Positions 590 through 64,000 of a stretch of DNA of 64,000 nucleotides are shown one piece after another. Within the stretch, counting starts at the first letter, position 1; every line of letters starts with the position of its first letter. The notes under the pieces are model-generated. The model saw nothing but the letters and a program-made list of their open reading frames with translations, was not told the DNA's origin and searched no databases. Source of the DNA: Chiloscyllium plagiosum (lineage: Eukaryota); the NCBI RefSeq assembly GCF_004010195.1, contig NC_057712.1, positions 102,338,468 to 102,402,467 on the forward strand. The letters run 5' to 3'. The translations under genes were made by a program, and so were the position numbers.

Positions 590-695
590 GCCCTTCATCA
601 GGATTCCTAATGAAGGGCTTATGCCCTAAATGTCGATTTTCCTGCTCCTTGGATGCTGCCTGACCTGATGTGTTTTTCCAGCACCACACTCTCGA
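590..695 (+). mobile_element. Short PLE-derived terminal-repeat element with a degenerate hammerhead motif and an inverted stub
   Basis: gcccttcatcagga-ttcctaatgaagggc palindrome followed by ttatgccctaaatgtcgattttcctgctcc...; same family as the copies at 41.8, 51.9, 56.4 and 61.9 kb. Confidence 0.75.
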
Positions 696-996
696 TACCT
701 GACACACAGCTTACTTGACACATCCCCTACCTGATCTGATCCAAAGCCCCTGACCTAACACGCTGCCAGCCTTGCACCCTCCTAACTCAAGCTGACCATC
801 CCTCCCCAAAAGCTTACACATCTATCTACCATCCTAACCCCAGACATGCGTGCTATCCCACACTCTCACCCACCCACCCACCAACCCACCAGTCAATGTT
901 CCCATTATAAGGGAATTATTGCAAGGTTTGTGAAGATTTGTAGCTCAGGTTGAGGTTTAAGGTGTAGGTTTGCTTGCTGAGCTGTAGGTTTGATAT

Positions 997-1036
997 CCAG
1001 ATGTTTCATTACCTGGCTAGGTAACATCATCAGTGG
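997..1036 (-). ncRNA. Inverted copy of the same hammerhead motif (cleavage triplet AUC)
   Basis: Reverse complement reads ccactgatgatgttacctagccaggtaatgaaacatctgg. Confidence 0.75.
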
Positions 1037-1161
1037 CAACCTCCAAGTGAAGCGAAGCTGTTGTCTCCTGCTTTCTATTTATATCTTTCTCCTGGATGGG
1101 GTTCCTGGGGTTTGTGGTGATGTTATTTCCAGCTAGTTTTCATTAGGACCCTGTACAACCC

Positions 1162-1590
1162 ATGGACAAAACCAACGTCATCTACAAAATTCCATGCAAG
1201 GACTGCCACAAACACTACGTAGGACAAACAGGAAGAAAGTTAGCCACCAGGATACACGAACACCAGCTAGCCACAAAAAGACACGACCCTCTCTCCCTCA
1301 TTGCCCTACACACAGATGAAGAAAAACACCATTTCGACTGGGACAACACATCTATCCTGGGAGAGGCTAAGCAAAGACATGCCAGAGAATTCCTAGAGGC
1401 CTGGCACTCCAACCACAATGCCATAAACAAACAAATAGATCTAGATGCCATTTATCAACCCCTCAGAAAACGAGCAGGAAATGACATCACCACAAACCCC
1501 AGGAACCCCATCCAGGAGAAAGACATAAATAGAAAGCAGAAGACAACAGCTTCGCTTCACTTGGAGGTCGCCACTGATGATGTTACCTAG
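1162..1590 (+). pseudogene. C-terminal GIY-YIG endonuclease domain of the Penelope-like element (RT portion missing)
   Basis: NVIYKIPCKDCHKHYVGQTGRKLATRIHEH...HTDEEKHHFDW...REFLEAWH: PLE-type GIY-YIG with a CxxC insert. Confidence 0.9.
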
Positions 1591-1610
1591 CCAGGTAATG
1601 AAACGTCTGG
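1571..1610 (+). ncRNA. Minimal type I hammerhead ribozyme motif in the PLE pseudo-LTR
   Basis: CCA-CUGAUGA-U-GUUACCU(AGCC)AGGUAAU-GAAA-C-GUC-UGG: stem I CCA/UGG, 7-bp stem II, intact core; predicted cut after 1607. Confidence 0.85.
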
Positions 1611-3295
1611 ATATCAAACCTACAGCTCAGCAAACAAACCTACACCCCATAAGGGAATTAGATAAAGTGTCAGAGTCCATTCGGATGCTGTTGGCCATGA
1701 GCATTTGCCAAATCATACCCTTACCAGGTGGACTGCAGCAGTTCTAGAAGAACTTTGGTCTGTCTCGGGGTAACTAGGGATGAGGCAACAAATTCCAGCC
1801 TTGTTAGTCATGTTGACATTTCCCTGTCATCGTGGCACCAAGTATTTCAGTTCATGCCTAGTGGTCCCAGGAGTGGCTTCTTAATTGGCTGCCAATGATC
1901 AAATCAGTTGGGGGTACCTAGTGCCCATCTGTGCTGGCTCAAGACCCACTTTCAACTCCAGTGTTGGGGACTACTTACATTCTCGTAAAATCTAATGCAT
2001 AATTCAAATTTCCGTTTTGAAGATGTGCAATTGCTAGTTCCCAATTTTTACTTCCTACATATCAAATATGGATTGGACTGAGCTGCTCAAGATACTTTTA
2101 TGGCCTTCAATTTCTAGTATGGAGGGATCCACTTCTTGTAAGACATGATTAAACGATTAGAATTTTTCTCCAATGTGTGTGAAGCTCCAGTAAATGGATA
2201 TCATGCAAGTTAAGGCTGTTAACATCAATACTTTTATTGGGTGGATATTCTAATTTGCAGGCAATTGAAACAATAAATGCTGCAAATCTGTGTGTTTCTG
2301 GTATTTGTACTTATGATGATATCTGGGGTTTGTAAATAATGGCTACAATGCTCCTTCCAACTTGGCAGACTGGCTGAGAGAAATGTTCACACAAGTTTTA
2401 CTATAAATGCCAATTTAAGTTGGACAGCTGCTGTTTGAATTTAACCTAGTCCACCTCAATTGAATGCAAAGGCCTGCACTGGATTTCCCAACAGAATAGG
2501 CAACCCACCCCCATCCCACAATCCAAAGGGAGCCAGGTACAGTATATGGGTACTGCACTGGCTGTGGGCGGAGAAAATGCAAAAAAGGCTAATCATCTTT
2601 GGCACAGAGGAGCATCCTGTGTCGGAGAGATTGGCGAAAGATGTTTCCCACCTGAAGGACGCTGATGGGCTAAGCTACTCATGTGTACACACTACACAGT
2701 GTTTTCACAGACACTCCATCTAAACCATTCAGACAACCTTACAGCTCTTTGCCTGGTTACAAGTTGCTCTGGTCACAGTGTATCAGGGCACACATACAAG
2801 CTACTTCTCACTGTCATCTGTTACTAGATTGGTACTTTAAAGGGCTTTCGTTCAAGTTGAATATTTAAGATCCAGCCTAGCTGCATGATGCATGTTAAAC
2901 TAATGAAACACTGGATGCACTCAACACTCAATTTCACTAAACCTTGTGACTATTACACATGTGGCAAAGCACATAATCAAAGGAAGCTGACAGGAGCTGG
3001 AAGTGGTCCTGAAATGTTAATCCCTTGACTTCTTTTGAGTACTGCATCTTTGTAAGAGTAGGATAAATTAGCATAAAGTGTTTGGGGGAATGAGAAATCC
3101 CCTCCTGGCTCAATGACACCGGTCCACGCACACACATCTCACAATAACTCCAAGTTATTCTATTTGGGTGTTAAGTCTTTTTCGGATACTGTTCATTATT
3201 CTAAGAATTTCGGAACAGGAGTGGCCATTCAGGCCCTGCCACTTGTTCTACAATTTAATGAGACCATGATTGAATCGGTATTTCTGTCCCATTAT

Positions 3296-4205
3296 GTGCT
3301 GCAAGGATTGGTGCCGTGTTCACTATTGTTTATCATTTATATGAATGATTTTGATGGGAATACAGGAGGCATGGTTAGAAAGTTTGCAGATGACACCAAG
3401 ATTGGTGATGTAGGGGACAGTAAGAAGGTTATCTAAGAGCGTGATAAGATCTTGAACAGTTGGTCCAATGGCCAAGGAATGGCAGATGGAGTTTAGTGCA
3501 AATACATATAAAGTGTTGCATTTTAGTAAGACAAACCAGGACAGAGGTTGCACAATTAATAGTAGGGCCCTGGGTAATGTTGAACAGAGAGACCCAGGGG
3601 TGCAGATATATAGTTCCTTGAGAAAGGCATCACAGGTAGACAAGGTAGTGAAAAATGGCGCACTTTCCTTTGTTGATTAGAGCGTTGAGTATAAGAGTTG
3701 GCATGTCATGTTGCAGCTGTATAAGACATTGGTGAGGCTACTTTTGGAGGACTGCATAAAATTCTGTTGCCCCGCGATAGGAAGGGGGTTATTAAACTGG
3801 AAAGATTCACAAGGATGTTACCAAGACTAGTGGGCTTGAGAGGCTGGAAAGGCTGGGATTTTCTCACTGAAGCATTAGATGTTGAGGGGTGATGTTATAG
3901 AGGTTTATAAAATCAAAGTCTTTTCCCCAGGGTAGGGGAGTCCAAATCTAGAGGGCATAAGTTTAATGTTAGAGTGGAAAGATTTAAAAGGGACCTGAGA
4001 GCAACTTTTTCACGCAGAGGATGATGTGTATATGGAATGGACTGTCTGAAGAAGTGGTAGAAGTGAGTACAATTATACTATTAAAAGACATTTGGATGGA
4101 TACATGAACAGGGAGGGCCAATTGCAGGCAAATGGGGCTAGTTAAGTTTGGGAAACCTGTTTGGCCGAAGGATCTGTTTCCATGTTGTATTACTCTATAA
4201 TTCTG
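3296..4205 (+). mobile_element. CR1 LINE 3' fragment (RT C-terminus and 3' tail)
   Basis: LFIIYMND...KFADDTKIG and WQMEF..KVLHF motifs; ends in a ctctataattct-type tail; frameshifted. Confidence 0.9.
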
Positions 4206-7205: not shown

Positions 7206-7224
7206 TCAGATGATTTGATTCTCT

Positions 7225-7752
7225 CACCAGGACAAAACACCCTGCACCCATCATGTGCAAGACTAACATAGTTGACAAGATTCCATGCAAAGACTGCACA
7301 AAACACTATATAGGACAACCAGACAGACAATGAGCAATCTGCATCCACGAACACCAACTAGCCACTAAACACCACAACCAGCTGCTCCTGGTAGCCACAC
7401 ACACAGATGACAAGGACCACAAATTCGACTGGGACAATACAACAACCATAGGACAAGCCAAACAGAGGACAGTCAGAGAATTTCTAAAAGCATGGCACTT
7501 ACCATCAACAAGCACATAGACCTAGACCCAATATACTGGCCACGACAACAAACAACCGGAACTGGTAACCAGAAACAACAGGAACGGACCTAAATAAATT
7601 CCACAAGACACAGTAAAGTAGCACTTCACAGGAGGCACTGAGTATGTCACCTCGACAGGGGATAAAACGTCTGCAAATCAACTTTTTAGCTTGGCCAACA
7701 TTCCCACAATGACAGCAACCAGTACCCAAGCTAAAAGTTTATACACAAACTG
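7225..7752 (+). mobile_element. Degenerate Penelope-like 3' end (GIY-YIG plus pseudo-LTR with a decayed hammerhead at 7635-7674)
   Basis: Translates KTNIVDKIPCKDCTKHYIGQ..*..HEHQLATK..FDWDNT..REFLKAWH, homologous to 1162-1590; motif gca-ctgagta-tgtcacct-cgac-aggggat-aaaa-cgtc-tgc. Confidence 0.88.
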
Positions 7753-8382: not shown

Positions 8383-8612
8383 TAGAGTTATAGACATGTG
8401 CAGCACAGAAACAAACCCTTTTGTCTAACTTGTCCATGCCGACCAGATAGCCTAAATTAATCTAGTCCCGTTGACCAGCAGCTGGCCCATATCCCTCTAA
8501 ACTCTTCCTACTCATATACCCATCCAGATGCCTTTTAAATGCTGTAATTGTACCAGCCTCCACCACTTCCTTTGGCAGTTCATTCCACGCACCCAACACC
8601 CTCTGCTTGAAG
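8383..8612 (-). mobile_element. CR1 3' end fragment
   Basis: WNELPKEVVEAGTITAFKRHLD motif plus the tail shared with the other CR1 copies. Confidence 0.9.
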
Positions 8613-9313
8613 AAAGGCAAGTGAAAATAGGTCAGAGAAGTGATTAAAAAAAAGTAATGAAACACTGTGGTGAGATGGAGAAATGGGGTTTTAATCTTTA
8701 ATTGCTGGAATCATCAGCTTTTACAGAACCTACCTAATTGTTGTCCTACTGAGATTTACTGAATGAAGATTGGGATTGTGTAAAAACTGAGTGCTTCCCT
8801 CCACTAGGTAACCACTCAGGTAACAATATTGAAATTGTTCCTAACAAATTGTATTTATACGGAAACTTTGATATGATCCAGGGAGTTTCACAGATGGCAG
8901 TGAGGGTAGGTGAACAGATTCAGAAATGGAGGAAATGGTTAAACTTGGCTAAATACTTGAAGGTAAAAAGAGTCGTAGGAGGAAGGGAGATTCTCAAATC
9001 TGCCATTTCCTGGTCTAAAGTGGGTCCTAAAATAAGTTGATTCTGGAAGACAAGATGTTCACAGCAGGTGGGTTGGTGTTGGATTTTGCCTATTATCCTT
9101 TGGATACTTAGTGTGAGTTGAAAACCTTGCCAACTTTTTGTTTAAACCTCCTCCCCCAATCTTCCCCCTCTTTCCTTCCTCTCCTGAAGGTGTAGTCTCA
9201 ATATTGGTGAACAGTTCCAAGGACACCAGTTACCCCTGACACTTCAAGCAAGCAACCAATATTGATGCATGTGCCTGTCAGTGAGTATAGACTAGTTACT
9301 AGACTGAGCAGGA

Positions 9314-9724
9314 GCAAATTACTGCAGATGCTGGAATCTGAACTGAAATCAAAAAATGCTGGTGATCACAATGGGTCAGGCAGCATCCATGGAGAGAAAG
9401 CAAGCTAGCATTTCAAGCCTGGATGACTCTTCACCGTAACTAAAGTGAAGCGTAGAGTGAACAGCATATACGCAATAGTGGGAGTTGGGGGGGGGGTGGA
9501 GGGGGGGCGCAGGTGTGTGTGTGTGGGGGGCGGAATGGGGGTTAGAGTGCTGGGAGAGAAAGGATGTTCAGATTAACTCCCCTTCCCACTATTGCATATA
9601 ATGCTACCTCTCTCCACACCTCACTTTAACTCTGATGAAGAGTCATCTAGATTCAAAACATTAGCTTGCTGTCTCACCTTTGTGACTACCTGACCCACTG
9701 TGATCTCCAACACTTTTTGTTTTC
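9314..9724. mobile_element. Non-coding PLE-derived inverted (tail-out) element with a 16-bp TSD and two decayed hammerheads
   Basis: ACTAGACTGAGCAGGA at 9298-9313 and 9725-9740; plus-strand motif ctgatga-agagtc-atcta-gattc-aaaa-catt at 9629-9665, mirrored at ~9404-9438. Confidence 0.85.
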
Positions 9725-10414
9725 ACTAGACTGAGCAGGACCGCACAGCAGAGCTTAATTTTGTTCTGTCTGAACACAAGGCAATCTCAGCAGGATAGTG
9801 CCCAGTAACAGAAATAATTCACAATCGAGTAAAGGCTGGAGCGAAATGAGTGCTCCTGCGCTGAAATTAATATATTTTAAATCATTTTAACACTTTATGT
9901 ACATCTTTTAAAATCAGCTAACAAATGTAAATTATATGACAACATTTGACAACAAGGGATCTAACAATTTTATAGAAAACAATCTTCCCTCAAAACAACA
10001 AGGAGCAGTTTTTAAAATATGAATGAACATTTTTTACACACACATACAATTGTAGTTCTTTCTATTATAGTAACTCTCCTAATTAACTGTTTTCAATTAC
10101 ATTTAACTCACATATTAATAACTTAGATCTGCCAACTAGAATCTTAAAAATATACTCTTATAAACTATGCAATAAAAAAGGGACAAAAAAAGGTTTTGAC
10201 TGCTATTAAGTACAGGAAATAAAGGTCAGCTGTGTGCAATCACTCATTATTTCCATGTTAGAAACAGCTCTCACTTTCTTTTTATTTGCAGAGTTCTAAA
10301 AAAATGTAATTTGAAACATAATAGTTCGACAGCTCTTTAGTCCCCTCGCGCTTTGCACTGTTCTCCAGCCAAACTGGAAGGTTTGGCAACCTGCTGCCAG
10401 GCAATCAGCCAAGA

Positions 10415-10417
<3 letters not shown>

Positions 10418-10447: not shown

Positions 10448-10448
<1 letters not shown>

Positions 10449-13020: not shown

Positions 13021-13425
13021 TTATATTAGATTCCCTACAGTGTGGAAACAGGCCCTTTGGCCCAACAAGTCCACACCAACCCTCCAAAGAGTAACCCACC
13101 CAGACCCATTTCCCTCAGAATAATGCTCTTAACACTGGGAAATTCAGTGTGGCCATTACCTAACCTGCACATCTTTGGACTGTGGGAGGAAACCCACTCA
13201 CCCAGAGGAAACTCCCACAGAAACAGGGAGAATGTGCAAACTCCACACACCCATTTCCCTCAGAATAATGCTCTTAACACTGGGCCTGCACATCTTTGGA
13301 CTGTGGGAGGAAACCCACTCACCCAGAGGAAACTCCCACAGAAACAGGGAGAATGTGCAAACTCCACACAGACTGTCATCCGAGGCTGGAATCAGCAGTG
13401 CTAACCACTGAGCTACCGAGCGACC
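13021..13425 (-). mobile_element. HE1/V-SINE-type SINE inserted in the Gypsy element, with an internal tandem duplication
   Basis: V-domain (tgtgtggagtttgcacattctcc...ttcctcccacagtccaaag) present twice; CR1-like tail. Confidence 0.88.
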
Positions 13426-18831: not shown

Positions 18832-21800
18832 CCAGAGTCACAGAGCCATAGAGATGTACAGCATGGAAACAGACCCTTCGGTCCAACCCGTTCATGCCAA
18901 CCAAATATCCGAACCCAATCTAGTCCCAACTGCCAGCACCCAGCCCATATCCCTCCAAAACCTTCCTATTCATATACCCATCCAAGTGCCTTTTAAATGT
19001 TGCAATTGTACCAGCCTCCACCACTTCCTCTGGCAGCTCACTCCATACATGTACCACCCTCTGTGTGAAAATGTTGCCCCTTAGGTCTCTTTTATATCTT
19101 TCCCCTCTCACCCTAAACCTATGCCCTCTAACTCTGGACTCCCCAACCCCAGGGAAAAGACTTTGTCTATTTACCCTATCCATGTCCCTCAAAATTTGGA
19201 AACCTCTATATGGTCATCCCTCAGCCTCCGACGCTCCAGGGAAAACATCCCCAGCCTGTTCAGCCTCTCCCTAAAGCTCAAATCCTCCAACCCTGGCAAT
19301 ATCCTTGTAAATCTTTTCTGAACCCTTTCAAGTTTCAATATGTTTTATCTTCTGGAAGGAAACCAGAATTGTATGCAATATTCCAACAGTGGCCTAACCA
19401 ATGTCCTGAACAGTTGCAACATGACCTCCCAACTCCTGTACTCAATACTCTGACCAATAAAAGAAAGCATACCAAATACGTTCTTCACTATCCTGTCTAC
19501 CTGCAACTCCACTTTCAAGGAGCTATGAACCTGCACTCCAAGTCAGCAACACTCCCTAGGACCTTACCATTAAGTGTATAAGTCTTGCTAAGATTTGTTT
19601 TCTCAAAATGCTTCACATTTATCTGAATTAAACTCCATCTGCCACTTCTTAGCCTATTGGCCCATCTGGTCAAGATCCTGTTATAATCTGAGGTAACTCT
19701 CTTCGCTGTCCACTCCACCTCCAATTTTGGTGTCATCTGCAAACTTATTAACTGTACCGCTTATGCTTGCATCCAAATCATTTATGTAAATGATAAAAAC
19801 TAGAGGACCCAGCACCGATCCTTGTAACACTCCACTGGTCACAGGCCTCCAGTCTGAAAAACAACTCTCCACCACCACCCTCCTACCTTTGAGCCATTTC
19901 TGTATCCAAATGGCTAGTTCTCCCTGTATTCCGTGAGATCTAATCTTGCTAATCATTCTCCCATGGGGAACCTAGTCGAACGCCTTACTGAAATCCATAT
20001 AGATCACATCTACTGCTCTGCCCTCATCAATCCTCTTTGTTACTTCTTCAAAAAACTCAATCAAGTTAGTGAGACATGATTTCCCACGCACAAAGCCACG
20101 TTGACTATCCCAAATCAGTCCTTGCCTTTCCAAATACATATACATCCTGTCCCTCAGGATGTATATCCTTGCCCACCACTGAGGTCAGGCTCACCGGTCT
20201 ATAGTTCCCTGGCTTGTCCTTACCTCTTTTCTTAAACAGTGGCACCACGTTTGCCAACCTCCAGTCTTCCGACACCTCACCTGTGACTATTGATGATACA
20301 AATATCTCAGAAAGAGGCCCAGCAATTACTTCCCTAGCTCCGCACAGAGTTCGAGAGTACACCTGGTCAGGTCCTGGGGATTTATCCACCTTTATGCATT
20401 TCAAGACATCCAGCACTTCGTCCTCTTTAATATGGACATTTTGCAAGATGTGACCATCTATTTCCCTATAGTCTATGTCTTCCATATCCTTTTCCACAGT
20501 AGATATTGATGCAAAATACTCGTTTAGTATCTCCTCCATTTTCTACGGCTCCACACAAAGGCCGCCTTGCTGATCTTTGAGGGGCCCTATTCTCTCCCTA
20601 GTTACCCTTTTGTCCTTAACGTAATTGTAAAAACTCTTTGGATTCTCGTTAATTCTATTTGCCAAAGCTATCTCATGTCCCCTTTTTGCTCTTCTGATTT
20701 ACCTCATAAGTATACTCCTTTATACTCTTCTAAAGATTCAATCGATCTATCCTGTCTATACATTACATATGCTTCCTTCTTTTTCTTAACCAAACCCTCA
20801 ATTTCTTTAGTCATCCAGCATTCCCTATACCTACCAGCCTTTCCTTTCACCCTAACAGGAATATACTTTCTCTGGATTCTCACTATCTCATTTCTGAAGG
20901 CTTCCCATTTTCCAGCCGTCCCTTTACCTGCGAACATCTGCCCCTGATCAGCTTTTGAAAGTTCTTGCCCAATCCCGTCAAAATCGGCCTTTCTCCAATT
21001 TAGAACTTCAGCTTTTACATCTAGTCTATCCTTTTCCATCACTATTTTAAATCTAATAGAATTATGGTCACTGGTCCCAAAGTGCTCCCCCACTGACACC
21101 TCAGTCACCTGCCCTGCCTTATTTCCCAACAGTAGGTCAAGTTTTGCACCTCCTCTAGTAGGTACATCCACTTACTGAATCAGAAAATTTTCTTGTACAC
21201 ACTTAACAAATTCCTCTCCTTAACACTATGGTAGTCCCAGTCTATGTTTGGAAAGTTTAAATCCCCAACCGTAACCACCCTATTATTCTTACAGATAGCT
21301 GAGATCTCCTTACAAGTTTGTTTCTCAATTTCCCTCTGACTATTAGGAGGTCTATAATACAATCCCAATAAGGTGATCATCCCTTTCTTATTTCTCAGTT
21401 CCACCCAAATAACTTCCCTGGATGTATTTCCGGGTATATCCTCCCTCAGCACAGCTGTAATGCTATCCCTTATCAGAAACACCACTCCCTCTCCTCTCTT
21501 GCCTCCCTTTCTATCCTTCCTGTAGCACTTTAAGCTGCCAGTCCTGTCCATCCCTGAGCCATGTTTCTGTAATTGCTATGATATCCCAGTCCCATGTTCC
21601 TAACCATGCCCTGAGTTCATCTGCCTTCCCTGTTAAGCCCCTTGCATTGAAATAAGTGCAGCTTAATTTATTAGTCCTACCTTGTCCCTGCCTGCCCTGA
21701 CTGTTTGACTCGCTTCTGTTCTCAACTGTACCCGTCTCAGATTGATCTTTTTCCTCACTATCTCCCTGGGTCCCACCGCCCACCTTACTCGTTTAAATCC

Positions 21801-27709: not shown

Positions 27710-28815
27710 AAACAAAGACCTGCGTAGGCTGGAAATCTGAAACATGATCAGAACTTGCTGGAGAAACTCAACATGCCTGACAGCATCTGTGAGGAGAAAG
27801 CAGCGATAATGTTTCAAATCAGGTGACTCTTCATCAGAACGGTTAGTAGCGAGGGAAAAGAGGGAGCGATGCTGAAGCCATACTGTGGTGGGTGGTGGAT
27901 AGGGGGGAAGGGGAGGAGGGGAGAGGGAAGCAGAGAGAGAGATATGAAAGGGCCATCAACCCACCAGCATTCACATCCAAAGGACCGGAAGTCGCTATTT
28001 TCATCATTCCCCTCCCCTCCATTGGCAGCCTACTGCAGGGACCATTCCCTCCGGAACACTCTTCTCCAGTCCTCCTCCATTCCCAACATCTTCTCACATT
28101 CCCATGACACCTTGCCCTGCAACAGCAGAAGGTATAGCACCTGACCATTTATTTCCCCCCTCCTCACCATCCAAGGCCCCAACCATACCTTCCACATGAA
28201 GCACTTCACTCAATCTAGTCGACTGCATTTGCTGCTCACAATGTGGTCTCCTCTCCTTTCGGGAAGCAAAGTACAGACCAGGTGACCACTTTGCAGCATC
28301 ACTTGGGCTGGGTCCTTAAGAATTAGCTTAGGTTTTCAGGTTCGTGCCACTTCAACACTGTGTTCCCATGCCCACATTTCTGTCACAGGACTGCTCAAAG
28401 AACAGCATCGCATTTTCCACTCAGGGTCCTTGCAGCCTCTAGGGTTTAACATTGAGCTCACAGCCTGATTCTATCCTTCCCTGCTTTTTCCTCACACCAC
28501 ACCTTCAGCACGGTGACCAATTCTCACCAATGCCCCACATTATATGGGTTGCAATCAGCATAGCTAACTCCATTTTCTCACTATTGATTCTTATTATCTC
28601 TTCTTGTGCTTTACATCTTCCAACCTGGCCTGCTATCTATTATCTCTTTGCTGACTTTCATATCTGTTTCTCTCTGGGCTCGGCCTCCGCCTGCCTGCTC
28701 ACCTCTCCCCTTCTCCCCCCACCACCAACCCCCTCCTTCCCCACTTCAGCTTCGGTAGAAATATCACTTTTTCCAAGCTGCTCTCAGTTCTGATAAAGAG
28801 TCACCAGTTATGAAA
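27710..28815 (+). mobile_element. Degenerate Penelope-like 3' end (Neptune-like) with an inverted terminal arm carrying a hammerhead
   Basis: AYCRDHSLRNTL..TLPCNSRR..T, then VDCICCSQCGLL..GEAK..GDHFA (decayed zinc finger plus GIY-YIG); minus-strand ctgatga-agagtc-acct-gattt-gaaa-catt at 27805-27840; decayed plus copy near 28790. Confidence 0.75.
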
Positions 28816-30214: not shown

Positions 30215-30394
30215 ACGGCAGTCTTAATATACATGAAGTAGTATTCTAAAGAAACCCAGGACAGAAGAAGGTACTTGATGTTGCTTTCTCCTTACGCAGT
30301 CAGAGTTGAACCCAATCTCATGGCTACCTTCTCATGGAAAATTTTCGAGCACCGTGCTGTCTGAACTGGTGTGTGACTGAACTTCAAATATGGT

Positions 30395-41639: not shown

Positions 41640-41726
41640 TACTCTAAAGGTTCTTAAAGTCACTTGAACCTTCCAAAATATTTCAATCAAATTCAAAATA
41701 TTCTCCCCAGGGCCAATTCCAAGCTC

Positions 41727-41927
41727 GGTAAAAATAATGACTGCAGATGCTGGAAACCAGATTCTGGATTAGAGGTGCTGAAAATGCACAGCAGTTCAGG
41801 CAGCATCCGAGGAACAGTAAAATCGATGTTTCGGGCAAATTCCTGATGAAGGGCTTTCGCCTGAAACGTCGATTTTACTGCTCCTTGGATGCTGCCTGAA
41901 CAGCTGTGCTTTTCCAGCACCTCTAAT
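41727..41927. mobile_element. 201-bp inverted PLE-derived mini-element with a 14-bp TSD
   Basis: CCAATTCCAAGCTC at 41713-41726 and 41928-41941; the two arms are reverse complements. Confidence 0.9.
41839..41874 (+). ncRNA. Minimal hammerhead ribozyme motif
   Basis: attc-CUGAUGA-A-GGGC(UUUC)GCCU-GAAA-C-GUC-gatt; core intact, stem I weak. Confidence 0.75.
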
Positions 41928-43139
41928 CCAATTCCAAGCTCCCCATGAATGGCTCCCCCTGAGGCATTCTCAAAGCATGGGATTCTGGGTGTTCTCTTCA
42001 CAAAGTTTCTGCAACCTGTGAACTTTCTCAACTTGAGGAAGAATTCATGTGGAATCAGGATGGACTTGAAATTCCTTTTAGCTCCTGGACACTATTTGAA
42101 TCAAATTCTTTGTAAAAATGATGGAATTACCTCAGTGCTTAGGCAGACCATCAGGTCTTCAGTATCAGCTCTGGAGGTTTGTTCACCTGAGCCAACTATC
42201 TATTCTCACTCCTTTGCCAGTACCGAGGTGAGTGTATGGATGCAATAAAATGTAGGCAACAGTAAATGTCACAAGTCAGTCTCGCCATTCAATTTAGGCC
42301 AATTTGAAACTGATCAGTCATTTAGTTAACTAAAATCAGATATTTTTATCGCTTTCCTAAGGGGAAGGTATAAAGTCCATCTCGTTGATTTTATTTTTGA
42401 GTGCCAAAGTGCTTTGTCTTAATGCCAATAGCAATAATGTTTCATCCCACCCTCTCCCAGCTCTCAATCTCATATATTAGGTAATTGGGTACCGAGACCG
42501 TACTCCCTCACCTTCCCAGCAATAATCCGGATTTAATAAGTGTTAATAAAATGGCGATCCATTCGAGCTGAGCAGTGCCACAACATCAACAGATCTCAAC
42601 ATTTTACCTCATCAAGGGGCAGCGTTTTCTTTAAAGGTTCAGGATACTAACTGGAGTTACTGCAAGGAACATAAATAATAACATCACAGTTGTATATCTT
42701 TTCAGATGTGGGTTTTTATTTTGGTGATTTTAATACCTTAATCTAAATACTTTTGCAGTTTGCACCAAAGAGGCTGGAAATCCTCTCGAATCATGTTCCA
42801 TCCTGTTGCTTCACATGACCTAATCTCGAGGCCAAAGCCAACGTGTATTGGGACCTGGGGCCATTTATTTGGGTGAATTGTGAATGCATCTGAATTTCTG
42901 CAGGTAGCTCACCCTTTTGAGGAATATGAATGTCGGGGCTGCCAGCCCTCTCTGGTGATCCAGAGTCAGGGTCAACTGCCAATGAGTGAGAGAAAGCAAA
43001 CGAGAGCACCGTAAAGCCGAGGGAAGCACAGTTACTCCCTTTAGCTTCAGAGCAATGAGTAAAGAGCAAAAAGCTGCTGAAGCCATTTAAACCCAGTTCC
43101 TGATCTGATCATTGCTCTCCACTTTCAGCAAGGGAGTTA

Positions 43140-49859: not shown

Positions 49860-50993
49860 AGCAAGATGGTGGCAGAGTAGGGCGGCCCACCCAGATCTCC
49901 CCTGCTCCATTTGTTCTTTTTCTGCTTTTCTCTTTTTAGCAGTCCCAGAACGGTGTGAGGGGTAACAGTCCCTGAGAAACACGAGAGGAGTGAGACCCAG
50001 AGCAGCGAGGGGGGAACCGTGTCCCAGAACGGTGTGTGGGGTAACAGTCCCTGAGTAACACCAGGGGAGTGAGACCCAGAGCAGAGAGAGGGGAACCGTG
50101 TCCCTGAACGGTGTGTGGGGTAACAGTCCCTGAGAAACACCAGGGATGTGAGACCCAGAGCAAGGAGAGGGGAACCGTGTCCCAGAACGGTGTGTGGGGT
50201 AACAGTCCCTGAGAAACACGAGGGGAGTGAGACCCAGAGCAGCGAGAGGGGAACCGTGTCCCTGAACGGTGTGTGGGGTAACAGTCCCTGAGAAACACGA
50301 GGGAAGTGAGACCCAGAGCAGCGAGAGGGGAACCGTGTCCCAGAGCAGTGTGTGGGGAAACAGTCCCTGAGTAACACGAGGGAAGTGAGACCCAGAGCAG
50401 CGAGAGGGGAACTGTGTCCCAGAACGGTGTGTGGGGTAACAGTCCCTGAGTAACACGAGGGGTGGGAGACCCAGAGCAGCGAGAGGAGAACCGTGTCCCA
50501 GAGCAGTGTGTGGGGAAACAGTCCCTGAGCAATGCAAGGGGAAGCAAGTCCTAGAGTAGTGTAACTGCCCTTGTTGCAGCTGAGTGCTGGTTTGGAGTGG
50601 TGTGGAGACTCAGAGCGAAGTGTGATAGTTGTTGGATGGGGGCCTGGTGCAGGCTGTCAGACCACATGCTCACTGAGCTGTCAGACCACATGCTCACTAA
50701 GCTGCTGCAATACCGCTGCAACGTAATATCAACCTGAAATTCTTTACCGAGCCGTCATGTCAATCCTTTAACTCTGTTATAACAATCTTATTTCTCAATT
50801 ATTTTTTAGACAGTGTAAGTAATGTTCCTACTTTTCCTTTCATTCCTCTTTTGTATCCAAGGTTTGTTCCTAGATACTTGTATCTAAGATGGTGCCATTA
50901 TAGGTAGCCATTGCAAAACCTTTTCACTGTACTCCTGTACTTCCACACCGGAGTCCACATGACAATAAAAGACTTTCTATTCTATTCTATTCA
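49860..50993 (+). mobile_element. Composite non-autonomous retroposon with an internal VNTR and a LINE-type 3' tail
   Basis: Starts agcaagatggtggcag; ends cttttcactgtac...cacatgacaataaaa..(ctatt)n; flanked by AGTAAATAGTC (49849-49859) and AGTAAGTAATC (50994-51004). Confidence 0.65.
49942..50530. repeat. 79-bp VNTR, about 7.5 copies
   Basis: Unit starts at 49942, 50021, 50100, 50179, 50258, 50337, 50416 and 50495. Confidence 0.95.
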
Positions 50994-51895
50994 AGTAAGT
51001 AATCTGTTGAAATCTAATCATTTATTTTCAGGAGAACAAGGCAGAACATATTCTTCAGAAAAGCATCCTTGTGGATAGAGTCAGTTAGCTGATAATTTTC
51101 AAGAAGTGACCAAATGACCAATTGTTTTTCGACCTTCGCTGCATTTATACAAAACCTGTTATTGCGGATTGGGTGAAACATTAGCAGCTGATTCACATCC
51201 AAATAGAAAAAAATGTTCATGCGTTTATCCCTCCAAATTTCTGAAATTAATTTTAAGTTGAATTGATTATTTAAATCTTATGGATAATTTTCTACTGATA
51301 TTTTCGATTGAACTTTGCTGTGATTGACACAGCAGTCACCTCACATAGGTACCCAGAGACTTCTCTCTGAGTCGTCTGCAAAGCTTCTTCATTGTTGAGG
51401 ATGTGACCCAGTGTAACATCCTCTGTAGGGGAACTGTAATAACCATGAGCAGTGCAACAAGCAAAGACGCTCTTCAACCAACCCAAATGGAGAACCGTGC
51501 AGATGTTCAACTAAACAGAACCCAACGTGGCAATTAGCAAATCACTTGCACAGTGGGAACAGGAAAGGTACTGTGCAGATCTGAACTAAATAAAAGTCAA
51601 ACTTTATTTTTTTCAAAAGTTCTTAACATACAGAATTACTTTTTCTGATCTAGACAGGTAGTTCAACCGTAATGATCATATAATATGCATTCGAGAACTA
51701 AGTCATAGCTGATTGCATTAGCTCAGATCTTTACCCCTGGCTTTAACATGATTACTGATTCCAAATTCACACCATTATTGTGATTTCAGTGCAGATCACA
51801 TTGGCAAACCCTTCAGCACTCTTGTGAAGGTACAGAGTACAGCTGAGAGCAACTTCTGGATTGAACTATGCACTTGCAGGCAGCAGATGTTACTG

Positions 51896-52027
51896 ATTCC
51901 TGATGAAGGGCTTTTGCCCGAAACATCAATTCTCCTGTTCCTCGGAGGCTGCCTGACCTGCCGTGCATTTCCAGCACCACTCTAATCTAGACTCTGGTTT
52001 CCAGCATCGGCAGTCCTTGTTTTTACC
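51896..52027 (+). mobile_element. PLE-derived short element beginning at a hammerhead motif (51896-51931)
   Basis: attc-ctgatga-a-gggc-tttt-gccc-gaaa-c-atc-aatt, then the family tail ...ccagcatcggcagtccttgtttttacc. Confidence 0.8.
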
Positions 52028-54060: not shown

Positions 54061-54198
54061 ACCTCAAAGCCTCACCTAATTGTTCATTAAACCCTATTCC
54101 TTCCCCAGTTCCTTCCCAATTTCCAACGTTATTAACCAAAAATATTTTCTTCAAATTATTGGCTAAAATAATTGACAAAAAGCAATCTCGTTTAACTC

Positions 54199-54620
54199 AA
54201 TAGAGTCATAGAATCATAAACAGACCCTTCCGTTCATGCTGACCAGATATCCCAACCAAATCTAGTCCCATTTGCCAGCACTTGGCCCATGTCCCTCTAA
54301 ACCCTTCCTATTCGTATACCCATCCAGATGCCTTTTAAATGCTGTAATTGTCTTCACCTCCACCACTCCCTCTGGCAGCTCATTCCATACACACTCCATT
54401 CTCTGCATGGAAAAGTTGCTCCTTAGGCCTTTTTTAAATCTTTCCCCTCTCACTCTAAACCCCTCTAGTTCTGGACTCCTCCAACCCAGGGAAAGGACCT
54501 TGTCTATTTACCCTATCCATGCTCCTCATGATTTTCTAAACCTCTACAAGGTTACCCTTCAGCCTCCGACGCTCCATGGAAAATAGCCGCAGCCTATTCA
54601 GCCTCTATCTATATCTCAAA
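54199..54620 (-). mobile_element. CR1 3' fragment
   Basis: GERFKKGLRSNF..WNELPEGVVE..FKRHLD; tail reads atagagtcatagaatcata on plus. Confidence 0.9.
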
Positions 54621-55034: not shown

Positions 55035-55327
55035 ATAGAATCCCTATAGTGTGGAAGCAGGCCATTCAGCCCTTCAAGTCCACACTGACCCCCCAAAAGC
55101 GTACCTTACCCAGACCCATTCCCTTATCCTTATAATCCAGCCCACACATCCCTGGACACTATGGGTAATTTATCATGGACTATCCACCTAACCTGCACAT
55201 CTTTGGGCTGTGGGAGGAAACCCACACAGACATGGAGAAATGTGCAAGCTCCAAATAGACAGTTGCCCAAGGCTGGAATCTAACCTGGTTCCTGGCGCGT
55301 GAGGCAGCAGCACGAACCACTGAGTCA
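55035..55327 (-). mobile_element. HE1/V-SINE-type SINE (diverged)
   Basis: Homologous to 38921-39222. Confidence 0.85.
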
Positions 55328-56312
55328 TAGGATGAAGCAAGGATTAAACCAATGGGATGATAGAAAGTAGGAATTCACTTATTCAATATACTCGAGTATC
55401 ATGATTGAGACTGTGAATAATTGATGAAAATCTCATCAGAGATTGCTGGCTACACTGAAACGGTTGGGCCTAGCTCACTACCCTGAGGAACTCCTGCAGA
55501 GGTGCCCTGGAGCTGGGATGCATGGTCTTCCAGCAATCACAACCATCTTCTTTTATAGCAGGCATGACTCCAACTTCCGGAGAGTTTTCCCTTGATTCCC
55601 ATTGACTCCTGTTTGGCGAGGCCTCCTTGACGTTACACTCAGTCAAATGTGGATGTTAAAGTGGATACTTCCGTAGGGCTGCCTTTGGCAATTGAGCAGT
55701 TGCTTGGAGATGCTTGGTTTGACAGTTAACTGAAAGGCATTTGTCCAGTTCCTTTCAACAGTGCAATGGTTGACTTCTGTTTTCTGCAATCTGGGAGACT
55801 TTATTTATTTTTACCTGCACACATAGAACTGCATTACAGAAGGTCTCAGCTGTGCCCCTTCACAGCAGACTATTGTACAGTGGAACTTGAACCACAGGCT
55901 AGACACTGGCATGCCAGGACATTTGTTGAAAACATCATGATCAAAGACGTTTCAGGATATTTGGAATATTAGAATAATAAACATATCACATGGTGGAAAT
56001 AATGCATGCCTAAGAGAAGGATTCTCACTGAGGATGGTACGTGTAGCCTAGCCAACCTATAAGCTTGGAACTGTATAGAATCATCCCTGGTGTTGCACTT
56101 TTCACCCAGCCTGGTTCATACTCGGAATGGCCTGCTCTAAATCTGATCTTGATCAAATGGAATAAATCAGGCAGAGTTATCTTCTCAAAACATGGAAGAG
56201 AGAGCATGAAAACTGGATTTGGTTTAGAAAATACCTCATAACTGTTTGGAGATACTCTCATTTTATTAGTCAAAGCAGTGAGCTGTCAGCCTTGGCTCAC
56301 TGATAGTTCCGG

Positions 56313-56692
56313 GATAAAGTGAGGACTGCAGATGCTGGAGATCACAGTCGAGAGTCTGGTGCTGGAAAAGCACAGCAGGTCTGGCAGCATCTGAGGAGCA
56401 GGAGAGTCAATGTTCCGGGCATAAGTCCTTCATCAGGAATTGAGAGGACTTCGGGAGTACAGTGACAGAGGGACTCATGAGATTCTTGCAGAGAGAGGAG
56501 GAGAACTTCTTTAAGGTAGGCATCCTTGGAAGACGCTTCGCAGTAAGGTTGAAATCAACTAAGAAAGAGTGAGGACTGCAGATGCTGGAGGTCAGAGTCA
56601 AGAGTGTGGGGTGCTGGAAAAGTACAGCCGGTCAGGCAGCATCAGAGGAGCAGGAGAATCGAAGTTTCAGGCACAAGCCCTTCATCAGGAAT
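56313..56692 (-). mobile_element. Tandem pair of hammerhead-bearing PLE terminal repeats separated by a ~125-bp spacer
   Basis: Direct repeats 56313-56440 and ~56565-56692; on the minus strand each begins attc-ctgatga-... Confidence 0.85.
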
Positions 56693-56697
56693 CGAGA

Positions 56698-57104
56698 ATT
56701 TCCCTGGAGCATCAGAGGCTGAGGGGTGACCTTATAGAGGCTTACAAAATTATGAGGGGCATGGATAGGGTAAATCGGCAAAGTCTTTTCCCTGGGGTCA
56801 GGGAGTCCAGAACTAGAGGGCATAGGTTTAGGGTGAGAGGGGAAAGATATAAAAGAGACCTACGAGGCAACTTTTTCACACAGAGGATGGTACGTGTAGG
56901 GAATGAGCTGCCAGAGGATGTGGTGGAGACTGGTACAATTGCAACATTTAAGAGGCATTTGGATGGGTATATGAATAGGAAGGGTGTGGAGGGATATGGG
57001 TCGGTGGCTGGCAGGTGGGACTAGATTGGGTTGGGATATCTGGTTGGCATGGACGGGTTGAACTGAAGGGTCTGTTTCCGTGCTGTACGTCTCTATGACT
57101 CTCT
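56698..57104 (+). mobile_element. CR1 3' fragment with tail
   Basis: LEHQRLRGDLIEAYKIMRG..FFTQRMV..FKRHLD; ends ctctatgactct. Confidence 0.93.
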
Positions 57105-58969: not shown

Positions 58970-59490
58970 AATGTCATAAAGTCATACAGTCATGCAGCGT
59001 GGAAACAGACCCTTCGGACCAACCAGTCCATTCCAACCAAAGTCCCAAACTAAACTAGTCCCACCCACCTGCGCTTGGCTCATATCCCTCCAAATCTTTT
59101 CTATTCATGTACTTATCCAAATGCCTTTTAAATGTAACTGTACTTGCATCCACCACTTCCTTTGGAAGTTCATTCACACATGAACCACACTCTGTGTAGA
59201 AAAGTTGCCCCTCATGTCTTTTTTAAAAATCTTTATCTTCTCACCATAAAAATATGCCCTGTAGTCTTAAAATCCCCATCCCTAGGGAAAAGATGCCTGC
59301 CATTCACCTTATCTATTCCCCTCATGATATTATAAACTTCACTGAGGTCACCCCTCAACCTCCGACACTTCAGTGAAAGAGGTGCCAGCCTATCCAGCCT
59401 CTCCTTATAACTCAAATCCTCCATTTCCAGCAACACCCTGGTCAATCTTTTTTGAACCCTCGCCAGCATAATAACAACCTTCCTTAACAG
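58970..59490 (-). mobile_element. CR1 3' fragment
   Basis: LARVQKRLTR..LSYKERLDRL..RLRGDL. Confidence 0.88.
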
Positions 59491-59636
59491 TGCAACAGAA
59501 CTGGTAAATACCACAGGCAGCATCTTTACAATTGCAGAAGTCCTTCAGGGTTGCACTGAAGTGTGAGCCTGGATTAGGTTCTCAGTTGTCTCGGGTCAGG
59601 CCTCAAGCTTATGCAGTGAGAGTGTGGTGCTGGAGA

Positions 59637-59815
59637 ATCCTCCAACCCTGGCAACATCCTTGTAAATCTTTTCTGTACCCTTTCAAATTTCACAACATCT
59701 TTCCGACAGGAAGGAGACCAGAATTGCATGCAATATTCCAACAGTGGCCTAACCAATGTCCTGTACAGCCGCAACATGACCTCCCAACTCCTCTACTCAA
59801 TACTCTGACCAATAA
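59637..59815 (-). mobile_element. Internal CR1 RT fragment
   Basis: LYRTLVRPLLEYCMQFWSP..VQKRFTRMLPGL. Confidence 0.9.
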
Positions 59816-60798
59816 GTTTGTGGAGACCCAGTGAGCTGGGGTTGGTGAAGGAGGTGAGGGTCAGGACCATGGAGGATGGGTGTTCTGGACGGGTTCTACA
59901 ATAGGACCAGTGAGCCAGTTAAGGAGAGATCTCACCACCGTGTAATTGTGATAGGGGCTGGGCCGGGCAGACAGATGGCAAGAAAACTGCCTGCTGGAGT
60001 TAGTCTGTTCCTCTACATTTAATTCAGTCCTGTAGGCAGATTCTTGCGGAGATGCCGGCGGTCTTGATCAGTGGCTGCAGAGCTGATGAGAACCGCTTGT
60101 AATCATTTTTTCAATAGGACCCATCACATTTTGTACCACTCAGACAGTTAACAGGTCTGTGATAGGCCTTACCCAGGGACCAAGTACCCCGGGGCAGATA
60201 CATCACCTGCCAAGAGTTGCCAATCCATATGAGGTCTGCAGCTCCTCTGAATCCAGCACAGGATAGCAGTGTCTGCTGCTGTTAATGTACCCACCCAAGG
60301 CCTAAGATTGAAGAGAGGCCCACGCATTGGTGGTGGCAGTAATGAAATCACAAGATGGTGGGCCATAAGGGACAGTGAACGTGAAGGTGTTGGCTATTGG
60401 CAAAACTCCATACCCACCCATTAATGGCGGATCTGTTGATAGGACATGGAGTGCCTTTGAAAGAGAGGATCACCAATGGAAGGTATATTTGTTGTGGTCC
60501 CTGCATTACCAAGCCCCTCCTCTGGTTTAACCAAATTACCACTGAAGGACATTAACTGGGTGTTTGGATCACCCATGAGCACTCCCACCAATCTTAATTG
60601 GGATGAAGATGGAATTTTGCAGGGTTCCCACCAACCACTGTCCTGCCCTGCCCTGATTACATACACCTCAACCACTTGTCCTGCCACAAGATGTCAGCAT
60701 CTGTCTTCTCAGAACTGGCTTCACTATTAGTTAGTTCATGGCTGGTTCGCTTTGTTGAGGTAGCAAGTTTCATTTCTGATTATCCTTTGCCTGACTGT

Positions 60799-60967
60799 GG
60801 CAGCATCAGGAGGTGGAAGAGTCAATGTTTTGGGTGTAACCCTTCTTCAGAATTAGAGGGTTACACCGGAAACGTTGACTTCTCCACCTCCTAGTGCTGC
60901 CTGTCTGGCAGTGTTCTTCCAGCCCCCTGCTTGTCTACCTTGGATTCCAGCATCTGCAGTTTTTTTG
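60799..60967. mobile_element. Inverted PLE-derived mini-element, another family (stem II gggt-tac-accc)
   Basis: Minus ctgaaga-agggttacaccc-aaaa-catt at 60821-60853 abuts plus agggttacaccg-gaaa-cgtt; tail ccagcatctgcagtttt. Confidence 0.75.
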
Positions 60968-61869: not shown

Positions 61870-62277
61870 GTAAGGGCTTTTGCCCGAAACGTCGATTCTC
61901 CTACTCCTCAGATGCTGTGCTTTTCCAGCACTACACTAATCTAGACTCTGATCTCTAGCAATGGCTAAGAATGGTGGCTCAGTGGTTAGCACTGCTGCCT
62001 CACAGTGCCAGGGTCCCAGGTTCGATTCCAGCCTCGGGTGATTATCTGTGTGGAGTTTACACATTCTCCCCATGTCTGTGTGGGTTTTCTCTTGCAGTCT
62101 AAGGATGTGCAGGCCAGGTGAATTGGCCATGCTAAATTGCACATAGTGTTAGGTGCATTAGTCAGAGGGAAACGGGTCTGGGTGGGTTACTCTTTGGAGG
62201 GTTAGTGTGGACTGGTTGGGCCGAAGGGCCTGTTTCCACACTGTAGGGAATCTAATCTGCAGTCCTCACTTTCACCT
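61870..62277 (+). mobile_element. PLE-derived mini-element (5'-truncated inside the hammerhead) with a 14-bp TSD, split by a SINE
   Basis: ACCTTCTTTTCTTG at 61856-61869 vs ACCTTCTTCTCTTG at 62278-62291; gggcttttgcccgaaacgtc; tail ...ctctagca|SINE|tctgcagtcctcacttt. Confidence 0.8.
61965..62256 (+). mobile_element. HE1/V-SINE-type SINE
   Basis: A box tggctcagtgg, B box ggttcgattcc, V-domain, tail ctgtagggaatctaatct. Confidence 0.9.
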
Positions 62278-62736
62278 ACCTTCTTCTCTTGCCAAGTCTG
62301 AAACCGGACAGGGGCAGGATTGGGAATGGATTAACAGTTTGATTTCTGACATTTTCTGTGCCGTTAATAATATGATCTCGGACTTTGGTTCTAATGTCCT
62401 CACATCACAAGGCATACAAACAAGTAGAAAAAAACATGGACTTTTACTTTAAACCCATAAATAGACCTCTGGCATCCGAAAATTTCTAAAGTTTAATCAA
62501 AAATCACAGTATTATCTGGCAGTGTGTGAGCAAGCATCACTCGAGCTCTGGAATCGGATAGCAGCTGGTTTATTGAGGCAGTGCTGTATTGCTGATGCTG
62601 TCTTTTGGATAATTTAAAACGTATATTTGTCTCGCACCTTCAACACTGATAAATATGACAAGGTATCTGAGGGGAACAATATCAAACAGAACTTGACCTG
62701 AGACACCTAGCTGTGTGCTAAGTCTGATGACCAAAA

Positions 62737-63030
62737 GATTAGATTCCCTACAGTGTGGAAACAGGCCCTTCGGCCCAATCAGTCCACACCAAGTAACCCA
62801 CCCAGACCCACTTCACTCTGATTAACACACCTAACTCTCGGGGCACTTTAACGTGGCCAATTCACCTGACCTGCACATCTTTGGACTATGAGAGGAAACC
62901 AGAGCAAACCCACACCGGCACGGGGAGAATGTGCAAACTCCACACAGACAGTCACCTGAGGCTGGAAACGAACCTGGGTCCCTGACATGGTGGGGCAGCA
63001 GTGCTAACCACTCAGCCATTGTGTCACCCC
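62737..63030 (-). mobile_element. HE1/V-SINE-type SINE
   Basis: Homologous to the other copies; possible TSD ccaaaa(a)g. Confidence 0.9.
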
Positions 63031-63143
63031 AAAAAGGCAGTTCTCTTAAAAAAAACTTTGTATTTGCATAGTGCCTCTAACATACTGATTTGGAGGTGCT
63101 GATGTTGGACTGGGCTGTACAAAGTTAAAAATCACACAACACC

Positions 63144-63413
63144 GTGGGCGGCACGGTGGCACAGTGGTTAGCACTGCTGCCTCACAGCGCCAGAGACCCG
63201 GGTTCAATTCCCGACTCAGGCGACTGACTGTGTGGAGTTTGCACATTCTCCCCGTGTCTGCGTGGGTTTCCTCCGGGTGCTCCGGTTTCCTCCCACAGTC
63301 ACAAAGATGTGCGGGTCAGGTGAATTTGCCATGCTAAATTGCCCGTAGTGTTAGGTTAAAGGGGTAAATGTAGGGGTATGGGTGGGTTGTGCTTCGGCTA
63401 ATCTAATCTCTAA
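63144..63413 (+). mobile_element. Young HE1/V-SINE-type SINE nested in the PLE-derived element
   Basis: Near-identical to the 38921-39222 copy over head and V-domain; part of the tail deleted; ends taatctaatct. Confidence 0.92.
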
Positions 63414-63446
63414 ACCAGGTTATAGTCCAACAGGTTTAATTGGAAG

Positions 63447-63481
63447 CACTAGCTTTCGGAGCACTGCTCCTTCATCAGGTG
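63447..63481 (-). ncRNA. Minimal hammerhead ribozyme motif (CUA triplet)
   Basis: CAC-CUGAUGA-A-GGAGC(AGU)GCUCC-GAAA-G-CUA-GUG: stem I CAC/GUG, 5-bp stem II. Confidence 0.82.
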
Positions 63482-64000
63482 GTTGTGGAGTGGCAGCGCT
63501 CCGAAAGCTAGTGCTTCCAAATCAAACTGGTGTTGCGTGATTTTTAATCTTCTAACATACTGAACCATCTCCTGAACATTATGAAACAAAGCTTGACATT
63601 GAACAATACAGGGGATCTTGGGACAGACGACCAAAAGCTTACCAGCAGATGTAAGCCTGGTGTGGGTAAACAAGCTGTTCTGCTGGGGTTAGGGGAGGAA
63701 GACTTCATGGATTACAAGCTTCTGAACTGAGAATTTGGTTTATTCTTTCAAGCGACCTGGACATTGCTGACAATTCCAGCATTTGTCGCTTATCCATGAT
63801 TGCTGTCCAGCTGAGTGATTTGTTAGGAGCTTTCAGTAGTTCGCTCAGAGTCAGCGTTATAAAGGGCATGGAGTTACCTGATGAATTTGAACCCATGTTC
63901 CCAAAACATTAGCTGGGGTTGATGGATCATTAGTAACATTCCCACCATCTCTCCGCAAACCTATAACCAAATTGCAAGGTGACATTTAGTCTCCCTTTCA

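Follow-up and report, generated by a model that had tools for sequence, protein, structure and literature searches.

A 64,000-nucleotide stretch of the genome of the shark Chiloscyllium plagiosum (NC_057712.1, positions 102,338,468 to 102,402,467 of the forward strand; here called the window) raises the question of why hammerhead ribozyme motifs recur along it: what carries them, how their copies arise and whether they cut. The motifs are very probably minimal type I hammerheads in the pseudo-long terminal repeats (pLTRs) of Penelope-like elements (PLEs), and the copies are separate, truncated insertions, likely inactive as ribozymes, that reached their sites by the route proposed below. The association itself, assumed in an earlier reading made without database searches (the sequence-only reading), is in print: pLTRs with minimal type I hammerheads were published in 2014 for metazoan PLEs (PMC4209133).

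All 14 motif sites listed in the sequence-only reading are present in the window, within a few bases of where it had placed them, and so are the five stem II and three stem I pairings that it quoted. Its statement that the core recurs intact or decayed holds unevenly. The complete motif is found at three of the 14 sites (cores at 1574+, 41843+ and 63478-). Four more (1033-, 27837-, 51900+ and 56688-) keep the core bases CUGANGA, GAAA and UH, which are thus retained in seven of the 14, but have lost the 15.2-16.2 pair, by a CG to CA change in three of the four. The other seven have a changed core (607, 7638, 9437, 9632, 56436, 60850 and 61872), and at 61872 the CUGAUGA half is entirely gone. 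Helix III is absent throughout; the 15.2-16.2 pair is palindromic and would permit dimers, and it accompanies an intact core only at the three complete sites. The list had omitted partial inverted partners at 601-, 41852-, 60850+ and 63482+, as well as a fragment at 28790+.

A strict descriptor (intact CUGANGA, GAAA and UH, at least three pairs in stem II, the 15.2-16.2 pair and at least two pairs in stem I) matched the window three times, while 25 dinucleotide shuffles gave 0.08 matches on average, a minisatellite being excluded; hence the motifs of the window exceed chance. The genome was sampled in 28 blocks of 50 kb at round coordinates of large contigs, two of them flanking the window (1,353,497 read bases). 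This sample contains 69 strict motifs, or 51 per Mb (block bootstrap 37-66), and its first 16 blocks (766 kb) gave 35 strict matches against 0-1 in ten shuffles. Exact counts over the whole genome yielded 69,589 occurrences of one family B pattern and 12,186 of one family E pattern (families are defined below), for which the sample had predicted 63,063 and 21,021; the reversed-pattern controls gave none. These two patterns alone put the number of intact motifs at no fewer than 81,775, and by extrapolation there are about 1.3-2.4 x 10^5 intact motifs and about 10^6 homology segments. The sample holds 446 such segments (330 per Mb) and the window 17, a density typical of the genome, and ribozyme-bearing pLTR pieces account for no less than 2.7% of the bases sampled (35,868 of 1,353,497). 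The sequence-only reading had called such loci dense in this genome, which turns out to be an understatement. Counts of minimal hammerheads in PMC4209133 are about 4,000 for the coelacanth and about 9,000 for Xenopus tropicalis; the lower bound here is some nine times the latter, a rough comparison given the other descriptors and older assemblies used there. Retrozymes are reported to reach at most 14,255, in the axolotl (bioRxiv 10.64898/2026.07.22.740005).

Could the motifs be chance matches, or patterns read into repetitive DNA? Eleven of the 14 listed sites fail the strict descriptor, and the Rfam hammerhead models, which the sequence-only reading had named as a means of finding the motifs, gave no match in the window at the gathering threshold and no hammerhead among the seven matches to E 10. 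Such a miss would be expected for motifs that lack helix III. The excess over shuffles, the empty reversed-pattern controls and stems that compensate between families refute chance, to which we leave practically no probability. The motifs are real minimal hammerhead sequences, most of them short, decayed and likely inactive. A match to Rfam mir-2131 at 41796-41899 is the fold-back hairpin of a family B insertion. A relaxed descriptor allowing one core mismatch (shuffle mean 0.52) added sites at 29174+ and 20157-, which fall in another repeat and were rejected.

Five families were labelled by stem II: A (GUUACCU), B (GGGC), C (GAGUC or GGGUC), D (GGGU) and E (GGAGC). Segments were gathered by BLAST from natural seeds and grouped by their similarity downstream of the motif. 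Column majorities were taken for clusters of at least three copies. The motif is covered by 16 of 26 segments in family A, 141 of 235 in B, 43 of 104 in C and 55 of 92 in E; family D has too few. All nine cluster majorities keep CUGANGA, GAAA and UH while the stems change in pairs, in line with the covariation proposed in the sequence-only reading. Most seeds were descriptor matches, so the test is not wholly non-circular; the clustered copies needed no fold. Among clusters stem I reads CCA/UGG, GCA/UGC, AGUU/AACU, CAC/GUG or UC/GA. It has three or four pairs in A, C, D and E, and in most copies of B, the commonest family, two pairs followed by a U-U, a point that had been missed. Helix II has four to seven pairs and an unpaired base after A9 in every family, with sequences that differ between families. 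The 15.2-16.2 pair of the majorities is CG in A and B and GC in E; in the C majorities and one small B cluster of five copies it is TG or CA, the forms expected from CpG decay. CpG columns differ in 21-26% of copies and other columns in 2-6%. One young family B subfamily (L174:2806-3075, with similar copies in L156, L161 and L163) includes many identical ribozymes with a four-pair stem I in place of the U-U, and was likely active recently. Dimers computed with ViennaRNA exchanged stem II and formed no helix III, and were set aside as uninformative on the active dimer.

The descent of the motifs from PLEs, already suggested by the sequence-only reading, is seen in their coding context. For all five end types a same-strand GIY-YIG remnant lies upstream in at least one natural copy, and copies bearing a reverse transcriptase (RT) were seen for families A and E. 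In the natural family A copy L044, RT and GIY-YIG endonuclease (EN) form a single 503-amino-acid frame; no CX2-5CxxC zinc linker lies between them, and a cysteine pair is located within GIY-YIG. To judge from its sequence, family A has the Penelope/Poseidon protein layout, like the PAc element of Anolis (Frangieh et al. 2024, PMC11167929), in which RT is followed by a C-terminal GIY-YIG with no zinc linker. The family A frame at 1147-1587 of the window matches PF01541 with E 0.002, under the curated cut-off, and has 98,907 first-look candidates in the genome. For families B, C, D and E coding sequence was seen only as separate broken pieces. Two B copies and one E copy retain an intact CX4CxxC linker before GIY-YIG; in C, judged by eye, the linker is decayed. 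Families B, C and E carry the Neptune-type zinc linker, a mark shared with Nematis; the CX2-5CxxC linker before a C-terminal GIY-YIG is common to both groups (Craig et al. 2021, PMC8557442) and does not by itself separate them. Family D shows the second half of EN in one of six segments. A broken RT lies between two family E ribozymes. This family E element (L149, G000:C14:40040500-40044000) has the RT between inverted repeats, and in place of its 3' part there is unrelated sequence with a second small fold-back. In the upstream region of family E (e.g. L077:2173, minus strand), several hundred bases of CA-rich simple sequence separate the endonuclease remnant from the ribozyme.

No intact full-length element was seen among the copies inspected, since the open frames of 765 and 806 amino acids in listed copies consist mostly of unread letters. 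The description of the loci as mostly non-coding mini-copies fits families B, C and E, where a coding remnant was found for 23 of 235, 8 of 104 and 5 of 92 segments, and does not fit A, where it was found for 14 of 26; these remnants were counted within 1.2 kb of a segment, and some belong to neighbours.

The copies are separate insertions with characteristic ends. Head-to-head pairs number 126 and hold 252 of the 463 segments; same-strand pairs within 1 kb number 21. In 69 close inverted B and E pairs the junctions vary, with core-to-core offsets from -101 to +36, and many inverted-pair junctions are near-palindromic. Target-site duplications of 11-20 bp flank 24 of 79 short solo B segments, three of which look like tandem or mis-set ends, compared with none of 78 swapped-flank controls; in family E they were found for three of ten, two of them unconvincing. 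With offsets counted from core C3, so that the family B cut lies at +28, the B 3' ends form two clusters, at +90 to +109 (101 of 234) and +125 to +144 (100 of 234), mapping a few bases long relative to the duplication-defined ends. They fit a tail of 30-40 nt, and two 3' ends separated by such a tail are seen in both B and E. The same holds for PAc, where the tail was traced to two internal starts of reverse transcription, cutting by the ribozyme was unnecessary for insertion and no reads ended at the cut (PMC11167929); templates appear uncut in both cases. Unlike in PAc, the tail is measured here in Neptune-type families and from genomic sequence alone.

These ends bear on the alternative that the mini-copies are a self-propagating non-autonomous family, either non-LTR retrozymes or similar to miniature inverted-repeat transposable elements, that is transcribed, self-cleaved, circularised and reinserted by PLE proteins. 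Animal non-LTR retrozymes are, like the copies here, non-coding, hammerhead-bearing and PLE-related, and occur in vertebrates including one chondrichthyan (PMC7229834; bioRxiv 10.64898/2026.07.22.740005); their derivation from pLTRs has been proposed in the latter. The very high copy number in the absence of coding sequence, the 21 close same-strand pairs and reads on the families in an RNA run also speak for it. Retrozymes, however, are tandem units bounded by cut sites, with linear and circular RNAs, whereas the copies here occur singly or in head-to-head pairs, with ends that do not coincide with the cut site. Junctions and 5' ends vary from copy to copy, so no fixed unit is amplified. The window contains no tandem arrays of ribozyme units, and its single tandem (56688/56436) encloses the start of a family B reading frame. 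Across the sample, none of the 69 intact motifs has an intact same-strand neighbour within 1 kb. We consider propagation as retrozymes or as a mobile mini-family very improbable.

The 5' ends of family B pile up just before the core. They were placed for 220 of 235 segments (the rest were unmapped or at unread letters) in a revised map, which replaced one based on the furthest of many references that had overstated upstream extension. The stop rate per base is 4.8% at -10 to 0, 2.0% at 0 to +10, 2.3% at -20 to -10 and about 0.5% further upstream; between +60 and +10 it is 0.36-0.62% per bin, except for 0.93% at +26 to +30. There is no spike at the cut site, where nine B ends (about five expected) and two E ends were found. 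In family E (89 of 92 segments) the rate is 3.1% per base at -10 to 0, with 19 of the 89 ends there. Duplication-defined 5' ends of solo B copies range from -22 to +43. Contigs from an independent run show a rise in depth of about 2.5-fold at core -3 of a young B copy, to which subfamily divergence may contribute, and level depth across the family A motif. The position of the B pile-up at the front edge of the ribozyme, and not at the cut site, suggests an uncut template RNA that begins there. A pile-up of this kind is not described in the available parts of PMC11167929.

We propose the following route. As for PAc (PMC11167929), a PLE protein would nick the DNA and start reverse transcription within the RNA, about 90 or 130 nt past the core start, on a template that the ribozyme has not cut. 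Our data add that copying would usually go no further than the ribozyme's front edge, with a template RNA starting at that point as the likeliest reason, and that the cDNA would often be folded back or re-primed to give hairpin inserts. Selection on the ribozyme may act only in the source elements, where the core is conserved and the stems are compensated between families, while the inserts would decay, CpG first.

Whether the pile-up reflects an RNA start, or stalling or trimming at that point, is about evenly balanced. The alternative to an RNA start is that the template is a long read-through RNA and the ends are set at the ribozyme edge by stalling, template switching or endonuclease trimming. 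At its own ORF-pLTR junction a purified PLE protein cleaves at ATT (PMC11167929), and family B has ATT at -4. The many near-palindromic junctions favour fold-back, family E lacks the initiator-like word discussed below, and transcription of Drosophila Penelope starts about 120 nt before the end of an intron, an end that marks the ribozyme edge (PMC2377424, PMC4209133). A structural stall, on the other hand, would be expected where the polymerase first encounters the fold, at its 3' side, and the stop rate there is at background; moreover, the pile-up occupies the same place in B and E despite their differing sequences outside the core. We put stalling or trimming somewhat below an even chance. 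Splicing at AG words 16-25 nt before the core was rejected: no spliced joint was found in the RNA reads, and the youngest subfamily has no AG.

We speculate further, and with distinctly less conviction, that Neptune-type transcripts could use an initiator-like word to start at the first stem I base, and that most copies could be integrated run-off cDNAs of the first 90-140 nt of uncut RNA, resembling strong-stop products. Of 37 long B copies, 28 have the word YYANWYY with A at -4, as has the C majority; the word is weak evidence, as it overlaps ribozyme bases in a pyrimidine-rich tract. By eye, G and A are both common before -4 at B junctions, which gives no signal of an extra G. If this proposal is true, the ribozyme would be a cap-proximal switch that removes the RNA 5' end and withdraws the RNA from translation or copying, and no natural record of the run-off step would be larger than that in this genome, where intact motifs number about 10^5 and decayed ones about 10^6.

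Several observations weigh against the proposed route or parts of it. No duplication was detectable in 55 of the 79 short solo B segments. Family A has no 5'-end pile-up, and that of family E is partly due to an older subfamily for which there is no long reference. The initiator-like word at -4 is absent from all 20 long E copies, though E also piles up there. No transcription start or pile-up of molecule ends was seen in the RNA run X20, of which about 2% was read. Head-to-head palindromes have been argued to arise by self-priming on an antisense template (PMC3846280), which would lead to the same inserts by another route. Finally, the lower divergence of the core than of downstream sequence among 122 B copies (24/1,218, 2.0%, versus 193/3,271, 5.9%) could mean selection at the level of copies; this test is confounded, as copies were picked by alignments through the core and the downstream columns hold subfamily variants, and among 50 E copies there is no significant difference.

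That last comparison, together with some 51 intact motifs per Mb and the domesticated intronic hammerheads known in amniotes (PMC6155905), would be in favour of some inserted copies being working ribozymes that cut host transcripts and are retained for it. Individual copies are nevertheless likely silent, since minimal motifs need a partner or a protein (no cleavage was seen for monomers in PMC4209133, and protein was needed in PMC11167929), intact same-strand neighbours are absent as described above, an antisense pLTR lies no more than 400 nt from 33 of the 69 intact motifs, and fold-back copies form long predicted hairpins (-31 to -382 kcal/mol) in which the motif would be tied up by pairing. 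In X20 no read ends pile up at the cut site, a weak test in one polyA single-cell run, nor were back-joints found, in short polyA reads that cannot show linear or circular cut-to-cut RNAs. Reads of this run on family B (1,098) and family A (134) lie in both orientations and cannot show autonomous expression. A role of retained copies in cutting host RNA is, in our judgement, very improbable.

Much of this is already known for other PLEs. The association with hammerheads, opposite-strand pairs and single truncated copies were described in PMC4209133, and inverted pLTRs, tails and junction palindromes in PMC3846280 and PMC8557442. The minimal hammerheads of metazoan PLEs, including fish Xena, Poseidon and Neptune (Cervera and De la Pena 2014, PMC4209133), share with those here the type I core lacking helix III, the extra base after A9, G at 10.1, the palindromic 15.2-16.2 pair and the occurrence of several families per genome, mostly as single motifs of truncated elements with opposite-strand pairs 100-700 bp apart. 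They differ in a far lower count and from family B in its two-pair stem I with U-U. Rotifer Penelope units (Arkhipova et al. 2013, PMC3846280) likewise have a direct and an adjacent inverted pLTR, an optional tail, target-site duplications, junction palindromes, solo pLTRs and an initiator-like word in the pLTR; in contrast, the unit here is usually cut down to its final 90-140 nt and has hundreds of thousands of copies, and the duplications are 11-20 bp instead of 8-10 bp. Partial tandems, an inverted 5'-truncated copy and the optional tail are also common to the PLEs of PMC8557442. Penelope is listed for the whale shark (PMC8455134). The text portions and two of three supplement files of PMC4209133 that were searched contain no shark entries, and we found no paper on shark PLE hammerheads in the literature searched, whose coverage excluded most subscription papers.

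The gain is therefore in scale and in where the copies end. What the hammerhead does in PLE transposition is described as unresolved (PMC8557442, PMC11167929). Tens of thousands of near-identical copies make it possible to read, relative to the ribozyme, the points at which reverse transcription begins and ends; here it appears to stop before the motif and not at the cut. Over half of the pLTR pieces are in inverted pairs, which would form double-stranded RNA if transcribed. In practical terms, a repeat component of the size given above is missed by Rfam.

Features of the PLE families in the window are collected in the table. The two family A arms, 961-1141 and 1466-1646, are 96% alike. The remnant at 28110-28460 was judged by eye from a six-frame translation and sits between inverted family C repeats.

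Table. PLE-derived features of the window (positions counted from its first nucleotide).
Feature	Position	Strand	Remarks
Family B pLTR stub	585..693	+	hammerhead 603-638, G5 and G12 changed; short inverted partner ~585-601
Family A inverted pLTR	961..1141	-	hammerhead ~997-1036, core intact, 15.2-16.2 pair lost
Family A reading frame, 3' end	1147..1587	+	GIY-YIG endonuclease remnant, 147 aa, runs into ribozyme
Family A pLTR	1466..1646	+	intact minimal hammerhead 1571-1610; predicted cut after 1607
Older family A subfamily	7239..7700	+	decayed GIY-YIG remnant; hammerhead 7635-7674, G8 and G12 changed; stem I GCA/UGC
Family C pLTR	9344..9483	-	inverted partner of 9584-9725; hammerhead ~9404-9440, core broken
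Family C pLTR	9584..9725	+	hammerhead ~9629-9666, G12 changed
Family C inverted pLTR	27740..27933 (left limit approximate)	-	hammerhead ~27805-27841, core intact, 15.2-16.2 pair lost, stem I weak
Decayed Neptune-type linker and GIY-YIG remnant (~28110-28460), then family C pLTR fragment	28110..28815	+	core start 28790; not listed in the sequence-only reading
Family B fold-back insertion (41727-41928) with 13-bp target-site duplications (41714-41726, 41929-41941)	41714..41941	both	sense hammerhead 41839-41874 intact, predicted cut after 41870; tail on inverted arm
Family B solo pLTR with tail	51895..52027	+	hammerhead 51896-51931, core intact; 15.2-16.2 and first stem I pair lost
Family B partial tandem	56316..56693	-	two pLTRs 252 nt apart (cores 56688, 56436); both ribozymes damaged
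Family D fold-back	60790..60905	both	minus-strand hammerhead ~60821-60853, G12 changed; partial plus-strand partner
Family B stub cut off within ribozyme	61872..61960	+	begins at stem II, no CUGAUGA
Family E fold-back	63405..63520	both	intact minus-strand hammerhead 63447-63481, predicted cut after 63450; partial plus-strand partner

The window also contains other repeats. A 1.2-kb inverted pair (19122-20303 and 29023-30220) is 85% alike, with further pieces of the repeat at 3296-4198, 8384-8615, 54218-54620, 56699-57102 and 58973-59816. Reverse transcriptase matches at 14202 and 28967 and an apurinic/apyrimidinic endonuclease match at 21183 point to remnants of long interspersed nuclear elements, presumably CR1-like. 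A second dispersed family of about 230-300 bp is found at 13025-13393, 55036-55328, 61975-62258, 62736-63029 and 63139-63356, several copies being mutually inverted; one copy adjoins the 61872 stub and another the fold-back at 63447. By its look we take it to be a tRNA-derived short interspersed nuclear element, in which ARAGORN found no tRNA.

A minisatellite of 10.8 kb (30396-41212; 15-bp unit, about 722 copies) has minus-strand frames open for up to 691 amino acids as five-residue repeats; it is probably non-coding, because the open frames switch along the array. Near-perfect short hairpins at 24129-24162 and 67-130 gave sub-threshold Rfam microRNA matches. A tandem array at 49942-50529 (79-bp unit, 7.4 copies, 92% matches) starts directly after a pyrimidine run ending in AG and is traversed by open frames of 204-294 amino acids.

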